DNA of 64,000 bases from Escherichia coli (GTDB lineage: Bacteria; Pseudomonadota; Gammaproteobacteria; Enterobacterales; Enterobacteriaceae): assembly GCF_003790525.1 (NCBI RefSeq), contig NZ_CP033635.1, one strand, 5' to 3'. Of this stretch, positions 5,271 through 26,770 are shown in pieces. The notes beneath the pieces are model-generated. The model saw only the letters and a list, made by a program, of their open reading frames with translations, searched no databases and was not told the origin of the DNA. The first letter of the stretch is position 1; each line of letters starts with the position of its first letter. The position numbers were made by a program, and so were the translations under genes.

Positions 5271-6628
5271 TTAAAGTTGTTATCGCGCTTCTTGTTATCG
5301 TGATAGTTGCTCGCTTAATCCTGAAAGGATATCGTGCAGAACCCGTGCTTTTTATTGCCGGGCTTGCGCTGATGGTTTGTACCTGGTTTACCGGTTGGGG
5401 CACAGTGTTACCGAAGGGCGTGTCCGGTACAGGAATTAGTTTTCTTGATCCTTTCGAAGTCATGCGCAATTTATTCAGTACCCGTGCGGCTGATCTCGGT
5501 CTGATGATTATGACCCTGATGGGATTTGCGCATTACATGGACCATATCGGTGCGAATGAAGCGGTTGTCCGTGTGGTAACCCGGCCATTACGGACATTAC
5601 GTTCCCCCTATGTTCTGCTTTTTTTCTCTTATCTTTTCGCCAGTCTTCTTCAACTGGCTATCCCCTCAGCTACCGGACTTGCTGTTTTACTGATGGGAAC
5701 CATGTTTCCTATTATGCTCGGACTCGGGCTGTCAGCAGCGTCTGCCGCAGGGGTAATTGCCACCTCTCTTGGTGTGGCGTACACACCGACAGCCATTGAC
5801 GCCATACGAGGCTCTGAAGCGGTAAATATGGATGTGGTGGAGTATGTTGTCTATCATCAGGGGCCTGCTGCTCTGGCGACTGTTCTGATTGTCGGTATCA
5901 GCCACTTTTTCTGGCAGAAACACTGTGATCGTAAAGCTGGAACATTACCTCATGAAATTGGTACGACAACGGTCATAAAAGCAGGCAGTACGCCGGCTTA
6001 TTATGCTCTGCTACCTATGCTACCGATCCTGATGGCCGTTGGCTCATCGGAGATTTTTGTCACCGGAATTAATCTCAATATCATTACGATTGTTCTTATC
6101 TCAATGGCAATTTGCATGCTGATCGAATGGGTCCGTAAATGTGATCTGAAAGCTGTATGTGACGGGTTTACCCATTTCCTGAAAGGAATGGGGACAGCAT
6201 TTACCGGCGTGGTGGGCTTACTGGTGGCCGCAGGTGTGTTTGCTCATGGGATTAAAAGCATTGGCGCGATAGATCAATTAATTTTGATGGCAGAGCACGT
6301 TGGGTTACCCCCTTTTGCGATGGGCATCGTTTTTGCTCTGGTTACACTGGCTGCAGCTGTCATTATGGGATCGGGCAATGCGCCATTTCTGGCTTTTGTT
6401 GAACTGATACCACAAATCGCTGCCAGCATGGGCGTGAATGCCATATCGATGATCCTGCCTATGCAGCAGGCTTCCCATATGGGGCGTGCGATGTCTCCCG
6501 TATCTGGCGTGGTTATAGCGGTTTCCAGTGGAGCAAATATAACTCCCTTCGAAGTGGTAAAACGCACTGCTTTACCCCTGATAGTTGGTTTTGTTTTTCA
6601 CTCTGCGATTATCGGTATTTTTTATTAA
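5267..6628 (+). CDS. DcuC-family (C4-dicarboxylate anaerobic carrier-like) transporter
   Basis: 453-aa membrane ORF; similarity to DcuC as recalled (ARLILKGY.., GNAPF.AFVE.IP, PVSGVV.AV); start ATG overlaps pepT-like stop (ATGA), so translationally coupled. Confidence 0.75.
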
Positions 6629-6639
6629 CTTGTTTTAGA

Positions 6640-8000
6640 TTGTCATCCTCCACGCCCAGAAGGATGTGGATTCCTGCTAATCAGGCTATTGCCGGAATCA
6701 TTTCGGTGGGCTCCTGCTTAAACAAAAGGCCTGACTGCACCATCTCTTTACAGGCAAGTACGGCGTGCCCTGCAGCTAAAATATTACGGGTGCCGTTTAC
6801 ATCGGCGCTCGCTGCATATGTGCGCCGGGCATGGCGCGTAGCGCCGTGACTGGCGCTGTTCTTCAACTGTGGTGGCTGAAGAACGACTAAGAGGTGAAAG
6901 TCCTCCACACACCCGGTGAGGGGAAGTGTTAGCGGAAGGCAAGGGTGTTCATCGCGAGGTGAAATCTGAAGGAAGCCGGATGCAAAATGCTGGCCTGACG
7001 AACAGGAAGCGGTTAAGGCGGCGCAGCAGGGTAAGGTGGCACAAATCACCAAAGCCCGATACTCACACGGAACGCTGTGACGTAAAGCCGACAGGCATAA
7101 GCAGGAAAGTCGCGTGAATTACCCCGGGAGATCTGTCGCCCTGCCAGTGTGCTACCGGTGCCGTGAGGCGCCGGGATGGGGCGGCAGAAGTCAGCCGACG
7201 CCGTAGTAGTGCTGCAAAACCGGCAGCATGAAGGGCCGAACATGATTAACTGTGATTAGGACATCCGAACCCGATGATGATTAATGAAGCACACGCGCAG
7301 GCAACTGCGGCCAGCGGCAGAGGAGACGGACAGTATCCGTCAGGGCTGCATGATGGCGCTGAAATCAGCACGGCGGCGGGTGGGCAAACGAAAGCGGAAG
7401 TGCCGCTGACGATGGAAGCGGTGATAACGAGAGAAAACCTGATGCTGGCTTATCAGCGCGTGGTGGAAAACAAAGGTGTGTCGGAGTTGAAACCGTGGCT
7501 GAAGAAGAACTGGCGCAGCGTATGGCAGGTATTGATTGACGGAAACTACCAGCCGCGGGCAATACGCCGGATGGATATCCCGAAGCCGGATGGCGGCGTG
7601 AGAACCTTAGGCATCCCGACGGTGGTGGACAGGCTTATCCAGCAGGCGATAGCGCAGCAGTTAAGCGCCATCGTGGACACAGCTTCTGCCGCTACGCAGA
7701 CGACTGCAACATCTACGTAAGCAGCCGGAAAGCGGGCGACCATCTGCTGAAGGACATCAGGGCGTTCGTGGAGAGCAAACTGAAACAGAAGGTGAATGAG
7801 AAGAAGAGCGCGGTGGCGCGCCCGTGGGAGCGGAAGTTGTGGGCTGACAGTGACGGACCGTGCTGCTTCACCAAACGCCTTGGACGGCAGGCGGAACTTG
7901 GATCGTTACGTACTTGAAAAGTGGATCAACAAGAGGGTTCAACGAGACTGGGGAGTTATATTTCTTTCTCAAGGTCCGGCATTTATCTCTTCCACATGAA
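6640..8000 (+). mobile_element. group II intron remnant (5' RNA domains plus internally deleted reverse-transcriptase/maturase ORF); boundaries approximate
   Basis: ORF 7274-7720 has the RT domain 0-2 signature (ENLMLAYQRV..IPKPDGGVRTLGIPTVVDRLIQQAIAQQL); a downstream frame has RYADDCNIYV..KLKQKVNEKKSAVARPWERK (RT domain 5-7 and thumb); the intervening RT domains are missing and no domain V/VI was seen. Confidence 0.7.
7274..7720 (+). pseudogene. group II intron reverse transcriptase/maturase, N-terminal fragment (internally deleted, frameshifted)
   Basis: see group II intron remnant; RT motifs split between frames, indicating deletion. Confidence 0.7.
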
Positions 8001-12905: not shown

Positions 12906-13619
12906 TCAGTGTTCCAGCGCGATAGCGCAAACATGTTCAAGCTTAGAGAGTGAATGGTATAGTTCTGGTAATGTCATTTTTTTTCTAATCACGACCTTAA
13001 GGTTAACTTCTATTCTTCCCTTTTTAACATCGCGAATAGTGAACGCTTCAATAATATTTTTTTGTTGATTAATACACTCTATCAGGGCTTGTAGCCCTGA
13101 TCTTTCGTCAAGAGTAACATGAACTTTTACTTTACCCGGAAATTGATTCTTAGCTTGCAAAAAGAGCACAAAATAGCTGAGTTTTATTGCAATCATGAAC
13201 AAAGCAGTGGTAACCAAAGCATGCATATAAAACCCAGCACCACATGTAATTCCCACCCCAGCCGAAGCCCAAACGATAGCTGCAGTTGTTAGTCCAGATA
13301 TAGCATCGTCATGGCGATGAAGGATAACACCTGCGCCGAGAAAACCTACACCGCTGATAATCTGTGCTGCCAGTCGCATCGGATCGCTACGTATATTCAT
13401 CGAGATTTCAGCGTAATATTCTGCAGACTGAATCGATACAATTGTCAGAACACAACTGGCGACTGAAATAATGACGCACGTTTTAAATCCAACAGGCTTC
13501 CCTTTCGATTCTCTTTCAAGGCCAATAATGCCACCAAGGATAAACGCGACGCAAATTTTGCCCAGTGTAATAAAGAGAGATTCTTCTTCACTGAATAATA
13601 AGAAGGATAACGTATTCAT
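12906..13619 (-). CDS. MgtC/SapB family membrane protein
   Basis: 237 aa; N-terminal hydrophobic domain with GIIGLERE motif typical of MgtC family, plus soluble C-terminal domain. Confidence 0.75.
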   Translation of the reverse strand: MNTLSFLLFSEEESLFITLGKICVAFILGGIIGLERESKGKPVGFKTCVIISVASCVLTIVSIQSAEYYAEISMNIRSDPMRLAAQIISGVGFLGAGVILHRHDDAISGLTTAAIVWASAGVGITCGAGFYMHALVTTALFMIAIKLSYFVLFLQAKNQFPGKVKVHVTLDERSGLQALIECINQQKNIIEAFTIRDVKKGRIEVNLKVVIRKKMTLPELYHSLSKLEHVCAIALEH

Positions 13620-13682: not shown

Positions 13683-14666
13683 CTACGCGCCGTAGTTCTG
13701 GATATAGTGCTCTATCAGCGAAATAAGCCGCGGGTTATCGATGCTCTGCAGAATTGTGACCTGTGCACCTTTTGGTTCAGGGATCCCAATATTGAGGCGT
13801 AATGTGTCACGTCCATAGCAACAAGTCATTCCGCGTGTAATGCCTTCCAGAGATACATCCAGATAATCTTCAGCCGTTGTTGCAAGAGAGGGATCCAGTA
13901 ACCAGGCAATGGTTAACACATCGTGGATCCAACACCCAGGCAGATTGCGGGTTTGCATAGAGTATGTAATCCATGGTCGAATGGTTTGTGCCAAATAACG
14001 GCTAAGCCCGTTTTCTGTTTTTGCTAGACGATCCAAATCGGCGTGAAGCATTTGGGTTTGCGTTGTCACATCCATCGGGACCAGCGTGACTGGCGCACCG
14101 CTGGTGAGCACCGCATGAGCCGCCTCAGGGTCCAGACCAAAATTTGTATCTTTCAGGTAGCCTGGAACATTGAACACGCCACCCATAACGACGATATTTT
14201 TGACCGCGTGAACAATCTGCGGGTAAAGCTGCAGGGCGATGGCTACATTAGTGAGGGGGCCGGTAGCAACCAACGTTATTTCGCCTGGATTACGACAGAT
14301 GAGTTCACCTATTGCTTCAGGCGCATGGGGTTCTACCTGCTGGCACAATGCTGGAGCAGGAACATTCGACCAGAGTTGCCGTAAACCAAACTGATCGACA
14401 CCATGATCCAGTTTTTCACGCCAGGGTTGCGGATCTTCCAAGAGCGCACGCGAGGCACCACGGTAGACCGCAACAGGAATATCCAATTGTGTAATGAGAT
14501 CTCTAGCGACCGCATATCCCACGTCTACCGGCGTATTTCCGGCAACAGTGGTGATCATTTCCAGCGCGATTTGCGGTGCGGCAATGGCCAGCGCCAGCGC
14601 CAGACCGTCGTCGATATTAGCGCCGGGAATGCCGTTCCCCGGATCGCAGTCAATAATGATACGCAT
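13683..14666 (-). CDS. inosine-uridine-preferring nucleoside hydrolase family protein
   Basis: N-terminal IIIDCDPG..DDGLALALA aspartate-cluster motif of IU-nucleoside hydrolases; start chosen at MRIIIDCDPG. Confidence 0.8.
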   Translation of the reverse strand: MRIIIDCDPGNGIPGANIDDGLALALAIAAPQIALEMITTVAGNTPVDVGYAVARDLITQLDIPVAVYRGASRALLEDPQPWREKLDHGVDQFGLRQLWSNVPAPALCQQVEPHAPEAIGELICRNPGEITLVATGPLTNVAIALQLYPQIVHAVKNIVVMGGVFNVPGYLKDTNFGLDPEAAHAVLTSGAPVTLVPMDVTTQTQMLHADLDRLAKTENGLSRYLAQTIRPWITYSMQTRNLPGCWIHDVLTIAWLLDPSLATTAEDYLDVSLEGITRGMTCCYGRDTLRLNIGIPEPKGAQVTILQSIDNPRLISLIEHYIQNYGA

Positions 14667-14676
14667 CGATTCATTT

Positions 14677-15708
14677 TCACTTTTTCTCGGGTTGAACTTC
14701 ATGCCCTTGGCAGCCACACGACTCTCCTGTTCGTAAATAAAACTCAAATTCAACACGGCGAACTTCTCCATCCCAATTTTTCAGCATGTCAATTGCCGCA
14801 CGGGCCATCTTATCGACAGGTTGTCGAACGGCGGTTAAAGAAGGGACGTTATAAGCCGATTCTTGTGTTGCGTTAAAGCAGACCAGCGCAACATCTTCAG
14901 GAACGCGCAGCCCATGTTCTGCCAAAGCGCGTAAACAGCCGAGAGCCTGTTGTTCATTTGTCGCGAACAGGGCGCGTGGCAGTTGGTGCTCAAGCATGCG
15001 TTTTGTCGCCTCGTAACCGCCGGCGCGGGTATAGTTGGTCGAAAAAATCCATGAGGGATTGACCACTAACGATGAGGCTTCCAGCGCCTGCTGCCAGCCC
15101 CGGATACGATCCTGAGTATTCAGCATTTCACGCGGGCCGCAGATGATGCCGATGTCGCGGTATCCGTGATCAATAAGATGTTGTGTTACCTGCATCGCCG
15201 CCAGTTGTTCATCAACCTGGATAACGCTGACGTTAAGCCCAGGATCCACACGATCGAGCATGACGCAGGGGGTACCGCTCTCCTGAATCAAATTGATATA
15301 AGGATGGCGATCAACACTGGTGTAGATCAGCCCGTCAACCTGGCGGTGTAGCATATTATTAATGAGTTCACGTTCACGGCAGCTACTATCGCCTGCGTCG
15401 CCCAGCAGGAGTACTTTGCCATCAGCAAAGGCTTCGTGTTGCAGGGCATGAGCCATAGAGGCGATAAACGGGTTCGAGATGTCCGGAGCGACTAGCCCAT
15501 AAGTTTGCGTACTCCCTGAAGCCAGCGCACGCGCGATGCCATTGGGTCGATAACCGGTTTTCTTAATGGCCTGTAGTACACGTTGTCGGGTCGCTTCGGC
15601 AACGGGGCGCGGGCCATTATTAATAACGTAACTAACGACAGCGACGGATGTCCCTGCTTCTTTTGCCACGTCAGAACGTGTTACGCGTTGTGAATGTGAT
15701 TGAGTCAC
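14677..15708 (-). CDS. LacI-family transcriptional regulator
   Basis: N-terminal HTH (VTRSDVAKEAGTSVAVVSYVINN) and periplasmic-binding-protein-like effector domain. Confidence 0.85.
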   Translation of the reverse strand: MTQSHSQRVTRSDVAKEAGTSVAVVSYVINNGPRPVAEATRQRVLQAIKKTGYRPNGIARALASGSTQTYGLVAPDISNPFIASMAHALQHEAFADGKVLLLGDAGDSSCRERELINNMLHRQVDGLIYTSVDRHPYINLIQESGTPCVMLDRVDPGLNVSVIQVDEQLAAMQVTQHLIDHGYRDIGIICGPREMLNTQDRIRGWQQALEASSLVVNPSWIFSTNYTRAGGYEATKRMLEHQLPRALFATNEQQALGCLRALAEHGLRVPEDVALVCFNATQESAYNVPSLTAVRQPVDKMARAAIDMLKNWDGEVRRVEFEFYLRTGESCGCQGHEVQPEKK

Positions 15709-15812
15709 GAAGCACCTACCTGATTGCGTTCAGAGTGATTTTTTCCAGACAGCATAAGGCGTTATGACCCAAAAATCTTTGGTAAAGAACGCGCATCTCA
15801 CGTTCTCTGGCC

Positions 15813-17207
15813 TTAAATTGCATCCTCGGGTAAGTTGAGATCCCGTCCGCGAGTCTCTGGTGCAAAGAAAGTGGTCACCAGTCCAATCGCGGCCATAAAG
15901 GCGAAATAGATAGCGATTGGCCACCAGTGCCCGTAATACGAGAGTAGCGCAGAGGCGATAAGTGGTGCAGTCCCGCCAGACAGAATGGAACCGAGCTCTT
16001 TTGCAAATGCCATTTTGGTATAACGATTAGTGACACCGAAAAGCTCAACGCCCCACGCAGCCTGAACACCAAAAATACCCAGTGAAGCCAGCCCCATCCC
16101 GGTAATGATCGTCGGGATAACAATCCACGGCTCACGAGAATCCAGCAACATAAATGCCGGAAAGGCATACAGGATCAGTAACAAGCAGAACCAACGATAG
16201 ATGATACGTCTACCGAATCTATCGGACAGCCAACCCGCCAGAGGAATAATGGCAAATCCCAGAACGGATGCAATAAGTACAGCTGCCGTGGGTACGGACT
16301 TATCCACCATCAGTACTTTCGCGACATAGCCAATGATAAATCCCTGAGCGAGATAAGAAGGACCATTCTCTCCTATGCGTAATCCGACCATGGTCCAGAA
16401 GGCACGGGTCCGTTTCCAGAAGCTACGACTGTCATGTTGTTGCTGTGCTTTTTCCTCACGAATAACCTTTTCTCGTTCAGCCTGCAGAAGGGCTTTTTGA
16501 CGTTCAAAGACTGGTGTTTCGCGTATATGACGACGAATTAATAGAGCTGCAGCAGCAATAAGAATGCTGCAAAGAAAAGGAATACGCCATCCCCAGCTTA
16601 ATAAGTCATCCTTGTCCATTTGCAGGACGATGAGCCAAACCAGCGAAGCCAGTAATGTTCCGCTGTTCGAACCCAGACCAATAACAGATGAAACCAGTCC
16701 ACGTCGTTTAACGGGAGCATATTCACCAAGCATCACAGTACCGCCTGAAAGTTCCGCTCCTGCTCCCAGCCCCTGAGAAAATCGAAGGATAACCAGACAT
16801 ATCGGTGCCCAGACGCCTATCTGGGCGTAACTGGGGATTAATCCTATTAGCATGGTCGACATGCCCATCAATCCAATAGTGATAACCATGACAATTTTCC
16901 GACCATGTTTATCGCCTATCCAGCCGAATAGTAATGCACCAATAGGGCGGGCAATAAACCCAACAGAATAGGCGGCAAAGCTGGAAAGTAATGCCATGAC
17001 GGGTGTCGCCTCCGGAAAAAAGACATCGCCAAAGATAATACCTGCGGCAAGGCCGTACAGGGCAAAATCGGCATATTCCATCGTGGTGCCTAACCAGCAG
17101 GAAACTGTTGCTCGCCAAAACTCGCGGCGTCCCTCGGAGGTTTCCAGCCGCTCCTGAGCTGCCTGTTGGTTATCTGTCAGGGAAACAGTGGATGAATGCG
17201 TGTTCAT
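15813..17207 (-). CDS. MFS transporter (metabolite:H+ symporter-like), likely nucleoside/metabolite uptake
   Basis: 464 aa, 12 predicted TM segments, MFS motif GWIGDKHGRK. Confidence 0.8.
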   Translation of the reverse strand: MNTHSSTVSLTDNQQAAQERLETSEGRREFWRATVSCWLGTTMEYADFALYGLAAGIIFGDVFFPEATPVMALLSSFAAYSVGFIARPIGALLFGWIGDKHGRKIVMVITIGLMGMSTMLIGLIPSYAQIGVWAPICLVILRFSQGLGAGAELSGGTVMLGEYAPVKRRGLVSSVIGLGSNSGTLLASLVWLIVLQMDKDDLLSWGWRIPFLCSILIAAAALLIRRHIRETPVFERQKALLQAEREKVIREEKAQQQHDSRSFWKRTRAFWTMVGLRIGENGPSYLAQGFIIGYVAKVLMVDKSVPTAAVLIASVLGFAIIPLAGWLSDRFGRRIIYRWFCLLLILYAFPAFMLLDSREPWIVIPTIITGMGLASLGIFGVQAAWGVELFGVTNRYTKMAFAKELGSILSGGTAPLIASALLSYYGHWWPIAIYFAFMAAIGLVTTFFAPETRGRDLNLPEDAI

Positions 17208-17263
17208 AAGAACTCCTTGATATTATCCGTCAGATATACATCACAGGTAGATATCTTTCTTAA

Positions 17264-17320
17264 ATCTACTCATGTAGATATTGTGTTTTATTACATATAA
17301 ATAAATCTACTCGCGTAGAT
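17264..17320. promoter_or_regulatory. two 16-bp palindromic operator-like sites (ATCTACTCATGTAGAT at 17264-17279; ATCTACTCGCGTAGAT at 17305-17320) upstream of the MFS gene
   Basis: perfect inverted repeats ATCTAC-N4-GTAGAT, duplicated 41 bp apart in the promoter region of the minus-strand MFS/LacI/hydrolase cluster. Confidence 0.5.
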
Positions 17321-17519
17321 AAACCATTCAATGGAAGTAAAATCGTGATGGAGATCACTCATAAGGTGTAAGCGCAAAGCTAACGTTGTCTGTTACCTCG
17401 CTCCTAGCGAGCTAAATTACGCTTAAAATATCAGCAATACACGAGCGCCTTGCTCATTTGAGCAGGGTGTTTTCTTTTGTCTTACATACAGTCATGACCA
17501 TGAAATTAGTCAACTACTC

Positions 17520-18804: not shown

Positions 18805-20102
<1,298 letters not shown>

Positions 20103-26030: not shown

Positions 26031-26770
26031 TAAATATCCTCCGGCATAGCCGGAGGTTTTTCAAATGCGCCTATAAGGCTCTCTTACCAGCCGCGCCCTA
26101 ACAGGCGCACACGATCTGACATTTGCATCCAACTTCGTTACTCACGGTCCATAAACGCGCTGCCCAGGTAGGGAATCGATAACTGCTCTCCCATTTTATC
26201 CTCTTCAAGCTGGTGCTTTATGTAATCCTGTATCTTCGCCGTGTTCTTACCCACCGTATCGACTTAGTACCCACTGCACCAGAACTCCCTGTTCCTGTAT
26301 TTGAATTTCAAATCACCAAACTGCTCGTAAAGCATCAGACTGCTTTTCCCTTTCAGATATCCCATAAAGCCGGATGCGCTCATTTTGGGCGGGATCTCCA
26401 CAAGCATATGGATATGATCTGCACAGCACTCAGCTTCAAGAATCCGTACGCTTTTCCACTCACACAGCTTTCTCAAAATACTGCCTGTTGCTCTACGCTT
26501 CTCTCTGTAGAACACTTGTCTTCGGTATTTTGGCGCAAAAACTATGTGATATTTACAGTTCCATCGGGGTGCGCTAGCTCTTTTCGTTCCCCATTGGGTC
26601 CCCCTTTTGATTTTTTGTTTGACACTTGCTGTTGCCATACCGCAAGGTGTTTTAACAAATCAAAAGAGGTTTTAATAACTGGCTCAAAACTGAAAGCTTT
26701 CCGGAACCCCCAGCCTGGCTGGGGAGCTGTGCACAAAAAAGCACCTCCACAAACAGGAGGTGCAATTCGA
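26031..26770 (-). mobile_element. IS200 (IS200/IS605 family) element with characteristic left-end hairpins; boundaries approximate
   Basis: TnpA Y1-transposase ORF; left-end terminator hairpin GCACCTCC..GGAGGTGC plus T-run (26735-26763) and second hairpin CCCCAGCC..GGCTGGGG (26707-26725); no terminal inverted repeats, as expected for IS200. Confidence 0.8.
26138..26638 (-). pseudogene. tnpA: IS200 transposase TnpA (HUH/Y1) with in-frame nonsense codon (TAA at 26264-26266)
   Basis: WNCKYHIVFAPKYRR..ILEAECCADHIHMLVEIPPK matches IS200 TnpA; ORF stops at GY* and the same frame continues VDTVGKNTAKIQDYIKHQLEEDK to the natural stop at 26138. Confidence 0.8.

Follow-up and report, generated by a model that had tools for sequence, protein, structure and literature searches.

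Local repressors of the LacI family typically act on the promoter region of the operon with which the regulator gene is co-localized, at an even palindrome, 16-22 bp long and centered on CG. Operators of this even, CG-centered type have been reported for 1173 of 1303 LacI-family regulators, and approximately 20% of LacI-family operons possess more than one site (PMC4052901). Here, we analyze a candidate system of this kind in a 64-kb stretch of Escherichia coli DNA (contig NZ_CP033635.1; the whole stretch is hereafter the window), in which two repeat sites precede a gene for a major facilitator superfamily (MFS) transporter, followed by the genes for a LacI-family regulator and an IU-type nucleoside hydrolase. 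The nearest functional analog, as judged by comparison with described systems, would be the UriR uridine operon of Corynebacterium glutamicum, which is analogous rather than orthologous. That operon is said, in work by Brinkrolf et al. from 2008, to include the MFS transporter uriT and the nucleoside hydrolase uriH.

UriR is a LacI-type repressor encoded in one operon with the uridine-utilization genes under its repression (PMC8313271). The C. glutamicum operators resemble cre boxes and share the central CG with the sites described here. The two systems differ in gene order, operator sequence and transporter subfamily, the window operon has no ribokinase gene, and the window regulator reaches only 158 bits against a cut-off of 550 bits for the UriR model (NF051853). 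A RegPrecise-based survey of the LacI family includes, in the part consulted, the nucleoside-related groups AduR, HpxR, UriR and SCO4158, none of them from Enterobacterales (PMC4052901). The helix-turn-helix peptide of the window regulator was not found in the consulted part of its supplement, which is not proof of absence; as far as that part goes, the cluster lies outside the nucleoside-related LacI groups of the 2014 survey.

The repeat sites and their proposed regulator

The sequence ATCTAC-N4-GTAGAT is present twice in the window, at 17264-17279 and 17305-17320, and the two copies have a 20-nt direct repeat in common, TAAATCTACTCnnGTAGATA. The MFS gene, on the minus strand, has its start codon at 17207; the sites precede this codon by 57-72 and 98-113 nt. 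Only 0.04 matches would be expected in 64 kb, and none of 100 shuffled sequences gave two. No third copy with up to one mismatch was found in the window, nor any further operator with up to three mismatches to the full consensus, including in the 104-bp gap between the MFS and lacI genes. The sites and the three genes are as follows.

17305-17320: predicted distal operator O1, ATCTACTCGCGTAGAT, in gene orientation ATCTACGCGAGTAGAT; one position off the family consensus, with the central CG kept
17264-17279: predicted proximal operator O2, ATCTACTCATGTAGAT, in gene orientation ATCTACATGAGTAGAT; 41 bp downstream of O1
15813-17207, minus strand: MFS transporter of 464 aa with MFS_1 and Sugar_tr matches, encoded by the first gene of the operon
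14677-15708, minus strand: LacI-family repressor, 343 aa, GTG start; its gene lies within the operon that it is proposed to control
13683-14666, minus strand: IU-type nucleoside hydrolase, 327 aa; PF01156, E 1.7e-69

A sequence-only reading of this DNA had described two perfect 16-bp palindromes 41 bp apart as LacI-family operators in the MFS promoter. The positions, the start-to-start spacing of 41 bp and the perfect 6-bp arms were all confirmed; perfection over 16 bp was not, since the 4-bp centers are asymmetric. Counted as 16-mers, the distal site (center TCGC) has seven of eight symmetric pairs and the proximal site (center TCAT) has six of eight. The assignment as operators is strengthened by the comparative evidence below, and it is very probable, from sequence comparison, that both repeats serve as operators for the LacI-family repressor whose gene occupies the middle of the MFS-lacI-hydrolase(-mgtC) operon.

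A scan of one genome per species recovered 80 loci encoding regulators 63-98% identical to that of the window, from Citrobacter, Raoultella, Mixta, Cedecea, Pluralibacter, Yersinia, Xenorhabdus, Providencia, Budviciaceae, Erwinia, Pantoea and Pseudomonas. Most of them preserve the gene order MFS-lacI-hydrolase. The motif, with the consensus ATCTACGCGCGTAGAT, is found upstream of the MFS gene in all 80 loci, within 400 bp in 79 and slightly further away in L071, where it was located by a whole-locus scan. In the 983 kb of locus sequence scanned, there are 93 matches with no more than one mismatch, and all are at the MFS promoter except in two Pseudomonas gingeri loci. In these two loci (L055 and L062, at 5930-5945 of each), an OprD-family porin gene splits the MFS gene from lacI, and an extra operator is present 71 bp before lacI. 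This natural rearrangement supports the link between regulator and operator. In six Xenorhabdus loci (L030, L033, L034, L035, L038 and L042), the MFS gene, the regulator and the operator are kept and no hydrolase gene is found downstream; in L033, a DUF805 gene stands where the hydrolase would follow.

It is formally possible that another transcription factor, either global or since lost from the island, binds the repeats and that the proximity of lacI is incidental. A half-site atypical of the LacI family would suit such a factor, as would the truncated GntR-family gene fragment present about 1.2 kb upstream in related E. coli genomes. We consider this very improbable: the motif and the LacI ortholog co-occur in every one of the 80 loci across several families plus Pseudomonas, the flanking genes vary from genus to genus, the site goes with lacI when the operon is split, and the even palindrome with central CG is itself the LacI-family signature.

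A count matrix of 97 sites gives approximately 2 bits per position in the arms, with a central CG in 96 of the 97; the distal window site and the same 96 sites have the length, symmetry, central CG and promoter position of LacI-family operators. Instead of covarying, the arms keep one sequence throughout, and changes at position 1 are independent of those at position 16, a pattern that fits recognition by a protein rather than a hairpin. The contrary idea, that the repeats are hairpins of RNA or DNA (a leader stem-loop or the end of a mobile element), draws on the ability of the proximal site to fold as a 6-bp hairpin in the predicted leader and on the abundance of insertion sequence (IS) remnants in the island, but it is scarcely credible. 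There is no compensatory variation, the changes at positions 1 and 16 being unpaired (TTCTAC...GTAGAT and ATCTAC...GTAGAA), and the leader fold is unexceptional (z = -1.2). We rejected the RNA hairpin on these grounds, and the mobile-element end because the motif is confined in every locus to the MFS-lacI-hydrolase promoter and is not found at island or IS boundaries.

The regulator has the N-terminal helix-turn-helix (PF00356, E 1.5e-13, residues 12-56) and the periplasmic-binding-protein-like effector domain (PF13377, PF00532 and PF13407, residues 68-312) that define the LacI/GalR family. Its nearest solved structures are CcpA, PurR and RbsR, with E values from 1e-55 to 1e-43. It falls under the cut-off of every named NCBIfam equivalog, the best being RbsR with 218 against 382 bits. 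Like PurR, RbsR, CcpA and CytR, it possesses a hinge helix with a conserved leucine: the hinge YRPNGIARALASG aligns with YRPNAVARGLASK of CcpA, and L62 is invariant in 15 orthologs. By analogy with PurR and LacI, this leucine would insert into the central base step of the operator. The helix-turn-helix and hinge (residues 10-62) are nearly invariant among orthologs that are only 64-89% identical overall, and we regard this near-invariance as matching that of the operator.

As with other LacI/GalR local repressors (PMC4052901), the operator predicted here spans 16 bp, is an even palindrome around a CG and lies 30-140 bp before the start codon. The window regulator departs from them in the half-site, ATCTACGC, which is not the common TGnAAnCG, in the recognition helix SVAVVSYVIN, where a tyrosine takes the position of the arginine of LacI and CcpA, and in the C-terminus. 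The C-terminal element GESCGC (window 14677-14720) is invariant in 15 of 15 aligned orthologs and is followed by a short, variable tail. We know of no role for such a Cys-Gly-Cys element in the LacI family.

We propose that a repressor dimer would recognize the 16-bp even palindrome ATCTACGC|GCGTAGAT, with the hinge-helix leucine opening the central CpG as in PurR, CcpA and LacI. A nucleoside, or a product of nucleoside hydrolysis, would be expected to release the repressor, and because lacI lies inside the operon, the repressor would also limit its own synthesis. This would be an ordinary switch in the style of the sugar operons, a textbook mechanism that should not surprise a specialist. Its value is that an uncharacterized LacI-family regulon is thereby given a testable operator motif, a promoter layout and a probable input from CRP, a regulon that is widespread in Enterobacterales and that, in E. 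coli, travels on an accessory island and on plasmids. The motif and layout should ease the finding of the inducer, and hence of the substrate of the divergent hydrolase/transporter pair.

Predicted promoter layout and the CRP-like site

An operator-anchored hexamer profile of 78 distinct upstream contexts places a -35-like hexamer at offset -7, ending 1 nt before the operator (mean match to TTGACA 3.5/6, background about 1.6), and a -10-like hexamer at offset +15, beginning with operator position 16 (mean match to TATAAT 3.9/6, background about 2.0). The commonest -35-like forms are TTGATT and TTGATC; the -10-like forms include TACACT, TAGACT, TACAAT and TATAAT, and the commonest whole arrangement is TTGATT-t-operator-TACACT. 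In most genera, the operator therefore appears to fill the spacer of a sigma-70 promoter, and the ancestral layout would consist of a single operator in that spacer (TTGAYY, 1 nt, operator positions 1-15, then TAnAnT). From such a position, bound repressor would exclude RNA polymerase. The corresponding features of the window are as follows.

17344-17359: CRP-like site, CGTGATGGAGATCACT, with a perfect GTGA-N6-TCAC core and 8 of 10 consensus positions; its center is 39 bp upstream of the O1 center
17300-17327, minus strand: ancestral promoter position enclosing O1 (model P1); -35 at 17322-17327, ATGGTT; -10 at 17300-17305, TTTATT
17280-17285, minus strand: candidate -10 hexamer adjoining O2 (model P2), CACAAT, a consensus match only

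Under model P1, O1 would be within the spacer and O2 at about +23 in the leader; under model P2, O1 would be at about -40 and O2 over the transcription start. At the position of the P2 hexamer, the plasmid copy has TACAAT, and Citrobacter and Raoultella have TATAAT. An operator would overlap the core promoter in either model.

Sites resembling TGTGA-N6-TCACA are fixed 39-42 bp upstream of the center of the anchor operator in many genera, including E. coli, Citrobacter, Raoultella, Providencia, Yersinia, Xenorhabdus, some Erwiniaceae and Budviciaceae. Given the predicted -10 hexamer, they would be centered at approximately -58.5 to -61.5, the class I CRP position, which implies that the operon is probably under catabolite control: with a CRP-like site some 60 bp before the predicted start, a lac-like logic would be added to the repression. 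The distance of 39 bp is the same for O1 as for the single operator of Yersinia. Because it shares its distance from the CRP-like site with the single operators, O1 is the likely ancestral operator.

Judged by sequence, the arrangement resembles that of the E. coli lac promoter in having a CRP-like site about 58-62 bp upstream of the presumed start (-61.5 in lac), an operator that overlaps the core promoter, and a second, weaker operator in phase. It differs from lac in that the operator would be in the -35/-10 spacer rather than at +11, and in that the auxiliary site is 41 bp away rather than 92 or 401 bp.

On the opposite strand, a promoter-like sequence, TAGATA-16-TAAAAT (17316-17343, plus strand), overlaps O1, and a terminator-like hairpin with a T-run is found at 17443-17472. 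Together (window 17316-17482) they would yield a divergent RNA of approximately 125 nt with a fold z-score of -2.0. The region is antisense to the remnant of an rpn-family pseudogene and is specific to E. coli. No Rfam family matched the promoter and leader of the window.

The second site in the E. coli clade

The number of sites per locus is not a constant of the regulon. One site is present in 63 of the 80 loci. A pair spaced 41-43 bp is found in 13 loci, which belong to E. coli, Citrobacter, Raoultella, Mixta and two further enterobacterial groups, and a pair spaced 23 bp in four Budviciaceae loci, where the extra site lies between the CRP-like site and O1. The spacing of 42-43 bp is kept in three subclades despite divergence of the sequence between the operators, which suggests a helical-phase constraint of about four turns. 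O2 is predicted to be a clade-specific second operator. In the clade of the E. coli island, this second operator, 41-43 bp or about four helical turns further downstream, would be on the same side of the helix as the first, and the two sites would jointly either enclose the core promoter or impose an additional early block in the leader.

The sequence-only reading had suggested repression by looping, in which a tetrameric repressor bridges both operators and loops out the 25 bp of intervening DNA. Two sites about four helical turns apart, the spacing of 41-43 bp kept in 13 loci despite inter-operator divergence, and the invariant C-terminal GESCGC, which could in principle mediate higher-order association, are all compatible with such a loop. 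The proposal is nevertheless unlikely and finds no support in the comparison, given that 63 of the 80 loci have a single operator, four have pairs at only 23 bp, and the E. coli proximal site is without the central CG. The regulator C-terminus, ...GESCGCQGHEVQPEKK, has no heptad leucines and so is without the LacI-type tetramerization helix; consequently, looping is not expected here, unlike in lac. Closure of a loop over 41 bp from center to center is sterically very demanding, which also counts against it. In the LacI family, in-phase tandem sites are usually taken as cooperative adjacent dimers (PMC4052901). A spacing of 41 bp fits better with two dimers bound in phase next to each other, and the sequence evidence favors one or two dimers acting by occlusion, possibly cooperatively, over a tetramer loop.

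A more serious alternative, possible if somewhat doubtful, is that only the distal site works in E. coli and that the proximal site is a decaying relic, repression being exerted from a single operator as in most genera. The E. coli proximal site alone among the 97 has no central CG, its center in gene orientation being ATGA rather than the GCGA of Citrobacter, Raoultella and Mixta, and this variant is fixed in the copies examined, namely the aligned chromosomal, plasmid and roughly 90%-diverged E. coli copies. In Intestinirhabdus alba (L011:4297-4500), an insertion of approximately 100 bp separates the two half-sites of the homologous second operator and the first is intact, so the second is dispensable there. 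Opposed to decay is the state of the arms: both 6-bp arms of the E. coli proximal site are perfect, its outer arm GTAGAT is better than the GTAGAA of Citrobacter, and the arms are retained in those same three kinds of E. coli copy.

Several points weigh against the interpretation of both repeats as operators of the window regulator. The proximal site, with TG in gene orientation at its center, is missing the otherwise universal CG; for this reason, O2 may bind poorly and may be a weakened operator. The half-site ATCTACGC is unlike the common TGnAAnCG, and the operator assignment therefore rests on co-occurrence and architecture rather than on a known recognition code. Both hexamers of P1 are degenerate in E. 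coli (ATGGTT and TTTATT), and a consensus scan (threshold 9/12) detected no sigma-70 promoter on the minus strand around the sites, which makes it uncertain where the operators lie with respect to the actual start. In the literature that could be searched, nothing was found on the cluster or the motif.

One further half-site is present downstream.

17247-17252: orphan half-site GTAGAT (gene orientation ATCTAC), 27 bp downstream of O2

This half-site has no partner arm, is missing in Citrobacter and is probably not a functional operator.

The hydrolase, the transporter and the mobile setting

The four co-oriented genes of the sequence-only reading, all on the minus strand, are borne out by agreement of Pfam, NCBIfam and the RefSeq annotation. 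The fourth is an accessory gene found only in the closest relatives (the Citrobacter, Raoultella and Mixta loci).

12906-13619, minus strand: MgtC/SapB-family protein whose C-terminal region is ACT-like; 63 bp separate its gene from the hydrolase gene upstream

No terminator-like site was found between the hydrolase and MgtC/SapB genes. In the 104-bp gap between the MFS stop and the lacI start, a hairpin, AGAACG...CGTTCT (15775-15800, minus strand), has no canonical T-run; it could reduce expression of the distal genes.

The MFS gene has a good AAGGAG ribosome-binding site before its ATG, and in all loci its orthologs show 73-96% identity. Among NCBIfam models, the best match is TIGR00883 (metabolite/H+ symporter), covered over its full length (1-400/400) with 389.7 bits; the transporter thus appears closest to this subfamily, although it is below the cut-off of 443.45 bits. 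The hydrolase matches PF01156 with 235 bits (cut-off 34.2) over 295 of the 297 profile positions. Its most likely start is 14666, the RefSeq start at which ortholog alignments begin, rather than 14771, the start of the longest open reading frame.

The hydrolase shares the IU-nucleoside hydrolase fold family PF01156 with RihA, RihB and RihC of E. coli K-12, and keeps the IHD (residues 247-249) and DPEAA motifs. In the calcium-binding DxDxxxDD fingerprint (residues 6-20; DCDPGNGIPGANIDD, DCDPG[NGIPGAN]IDD), the four aspartates are kept around a 7-residue insertion, and the form DCDPG-NG(I/V)xGAN-(I/V/T)DD is present in the hydrolase and in all orthologs examined. This insertion, together with a location on an accessory island or plasmid rather than in the core genome, distinguishes the enzyme from the K-12 hydrolases, and the insertion defines a distinct hydrolase subfamily. 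The scores are below every NCBIfam equivalog cut-off compared (RihA 162/433, RihB 128/459, RihC 156/382 and UriH 138/450 bits).

The proximity of the transporter to the organic-acid/H+ symporter branch rather than to nucleoside permeases, the insertion in the hydrolase and the atypical half-site of the regulator leave room for a more speculative reading, which we consider improbable: that the ribonucleoside catabolized by the operon is not one of the standard ones but an unusual compound, perhaps acidic or modified, and that the leader found in Erwiniaceae could be an RNA sensing the same compound. This leader of approximately 260 nt, situated between the operator/promoter and the MFS start, is found in Pantoea dispersa (L074:4271-4536) and conserved in some 30 further Erwiniaceae loci. 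Its CCAACACCAGGGA loop is invariant, its hairpins show some compensatory changes, and no Rfam family matched it at the gathering threshold. On this pattern, it may be an undescribed cis-regulatory RNA. A related motif, CCAAYACC..GGG, adjoins the ribosome-binding site in L016, L018 and Providencia.

The 5-kb segment of the window is 100% identical to E. coli accessory DNA. Of 5,426 complete genomes, 240 carry it in full, and IS remnants flank it. The promoter region is present in 255 of these genomes, human and poultry isolates among them, with 62 copies on plasmids, where it is bounded by IS26 and other IS elements. The entire MFS-lacI-hydrolase-mgtC cluster is found on large E. coli plasmids (pB20123_1, our L082, and 61 other plasmid places) with 97-98% identity. 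The existence of both chromosomal and IS-bounded plasmid copies indicates that the cluster moves between the chromosome and plasmids. Elsewhere in the window, gathering-level Rfam matches to group II intron D1-D4, the small RNA isrC and STnc490 (6948-7236, 19872-19994 and 26604-26727) are typical of mobile or island DNA.

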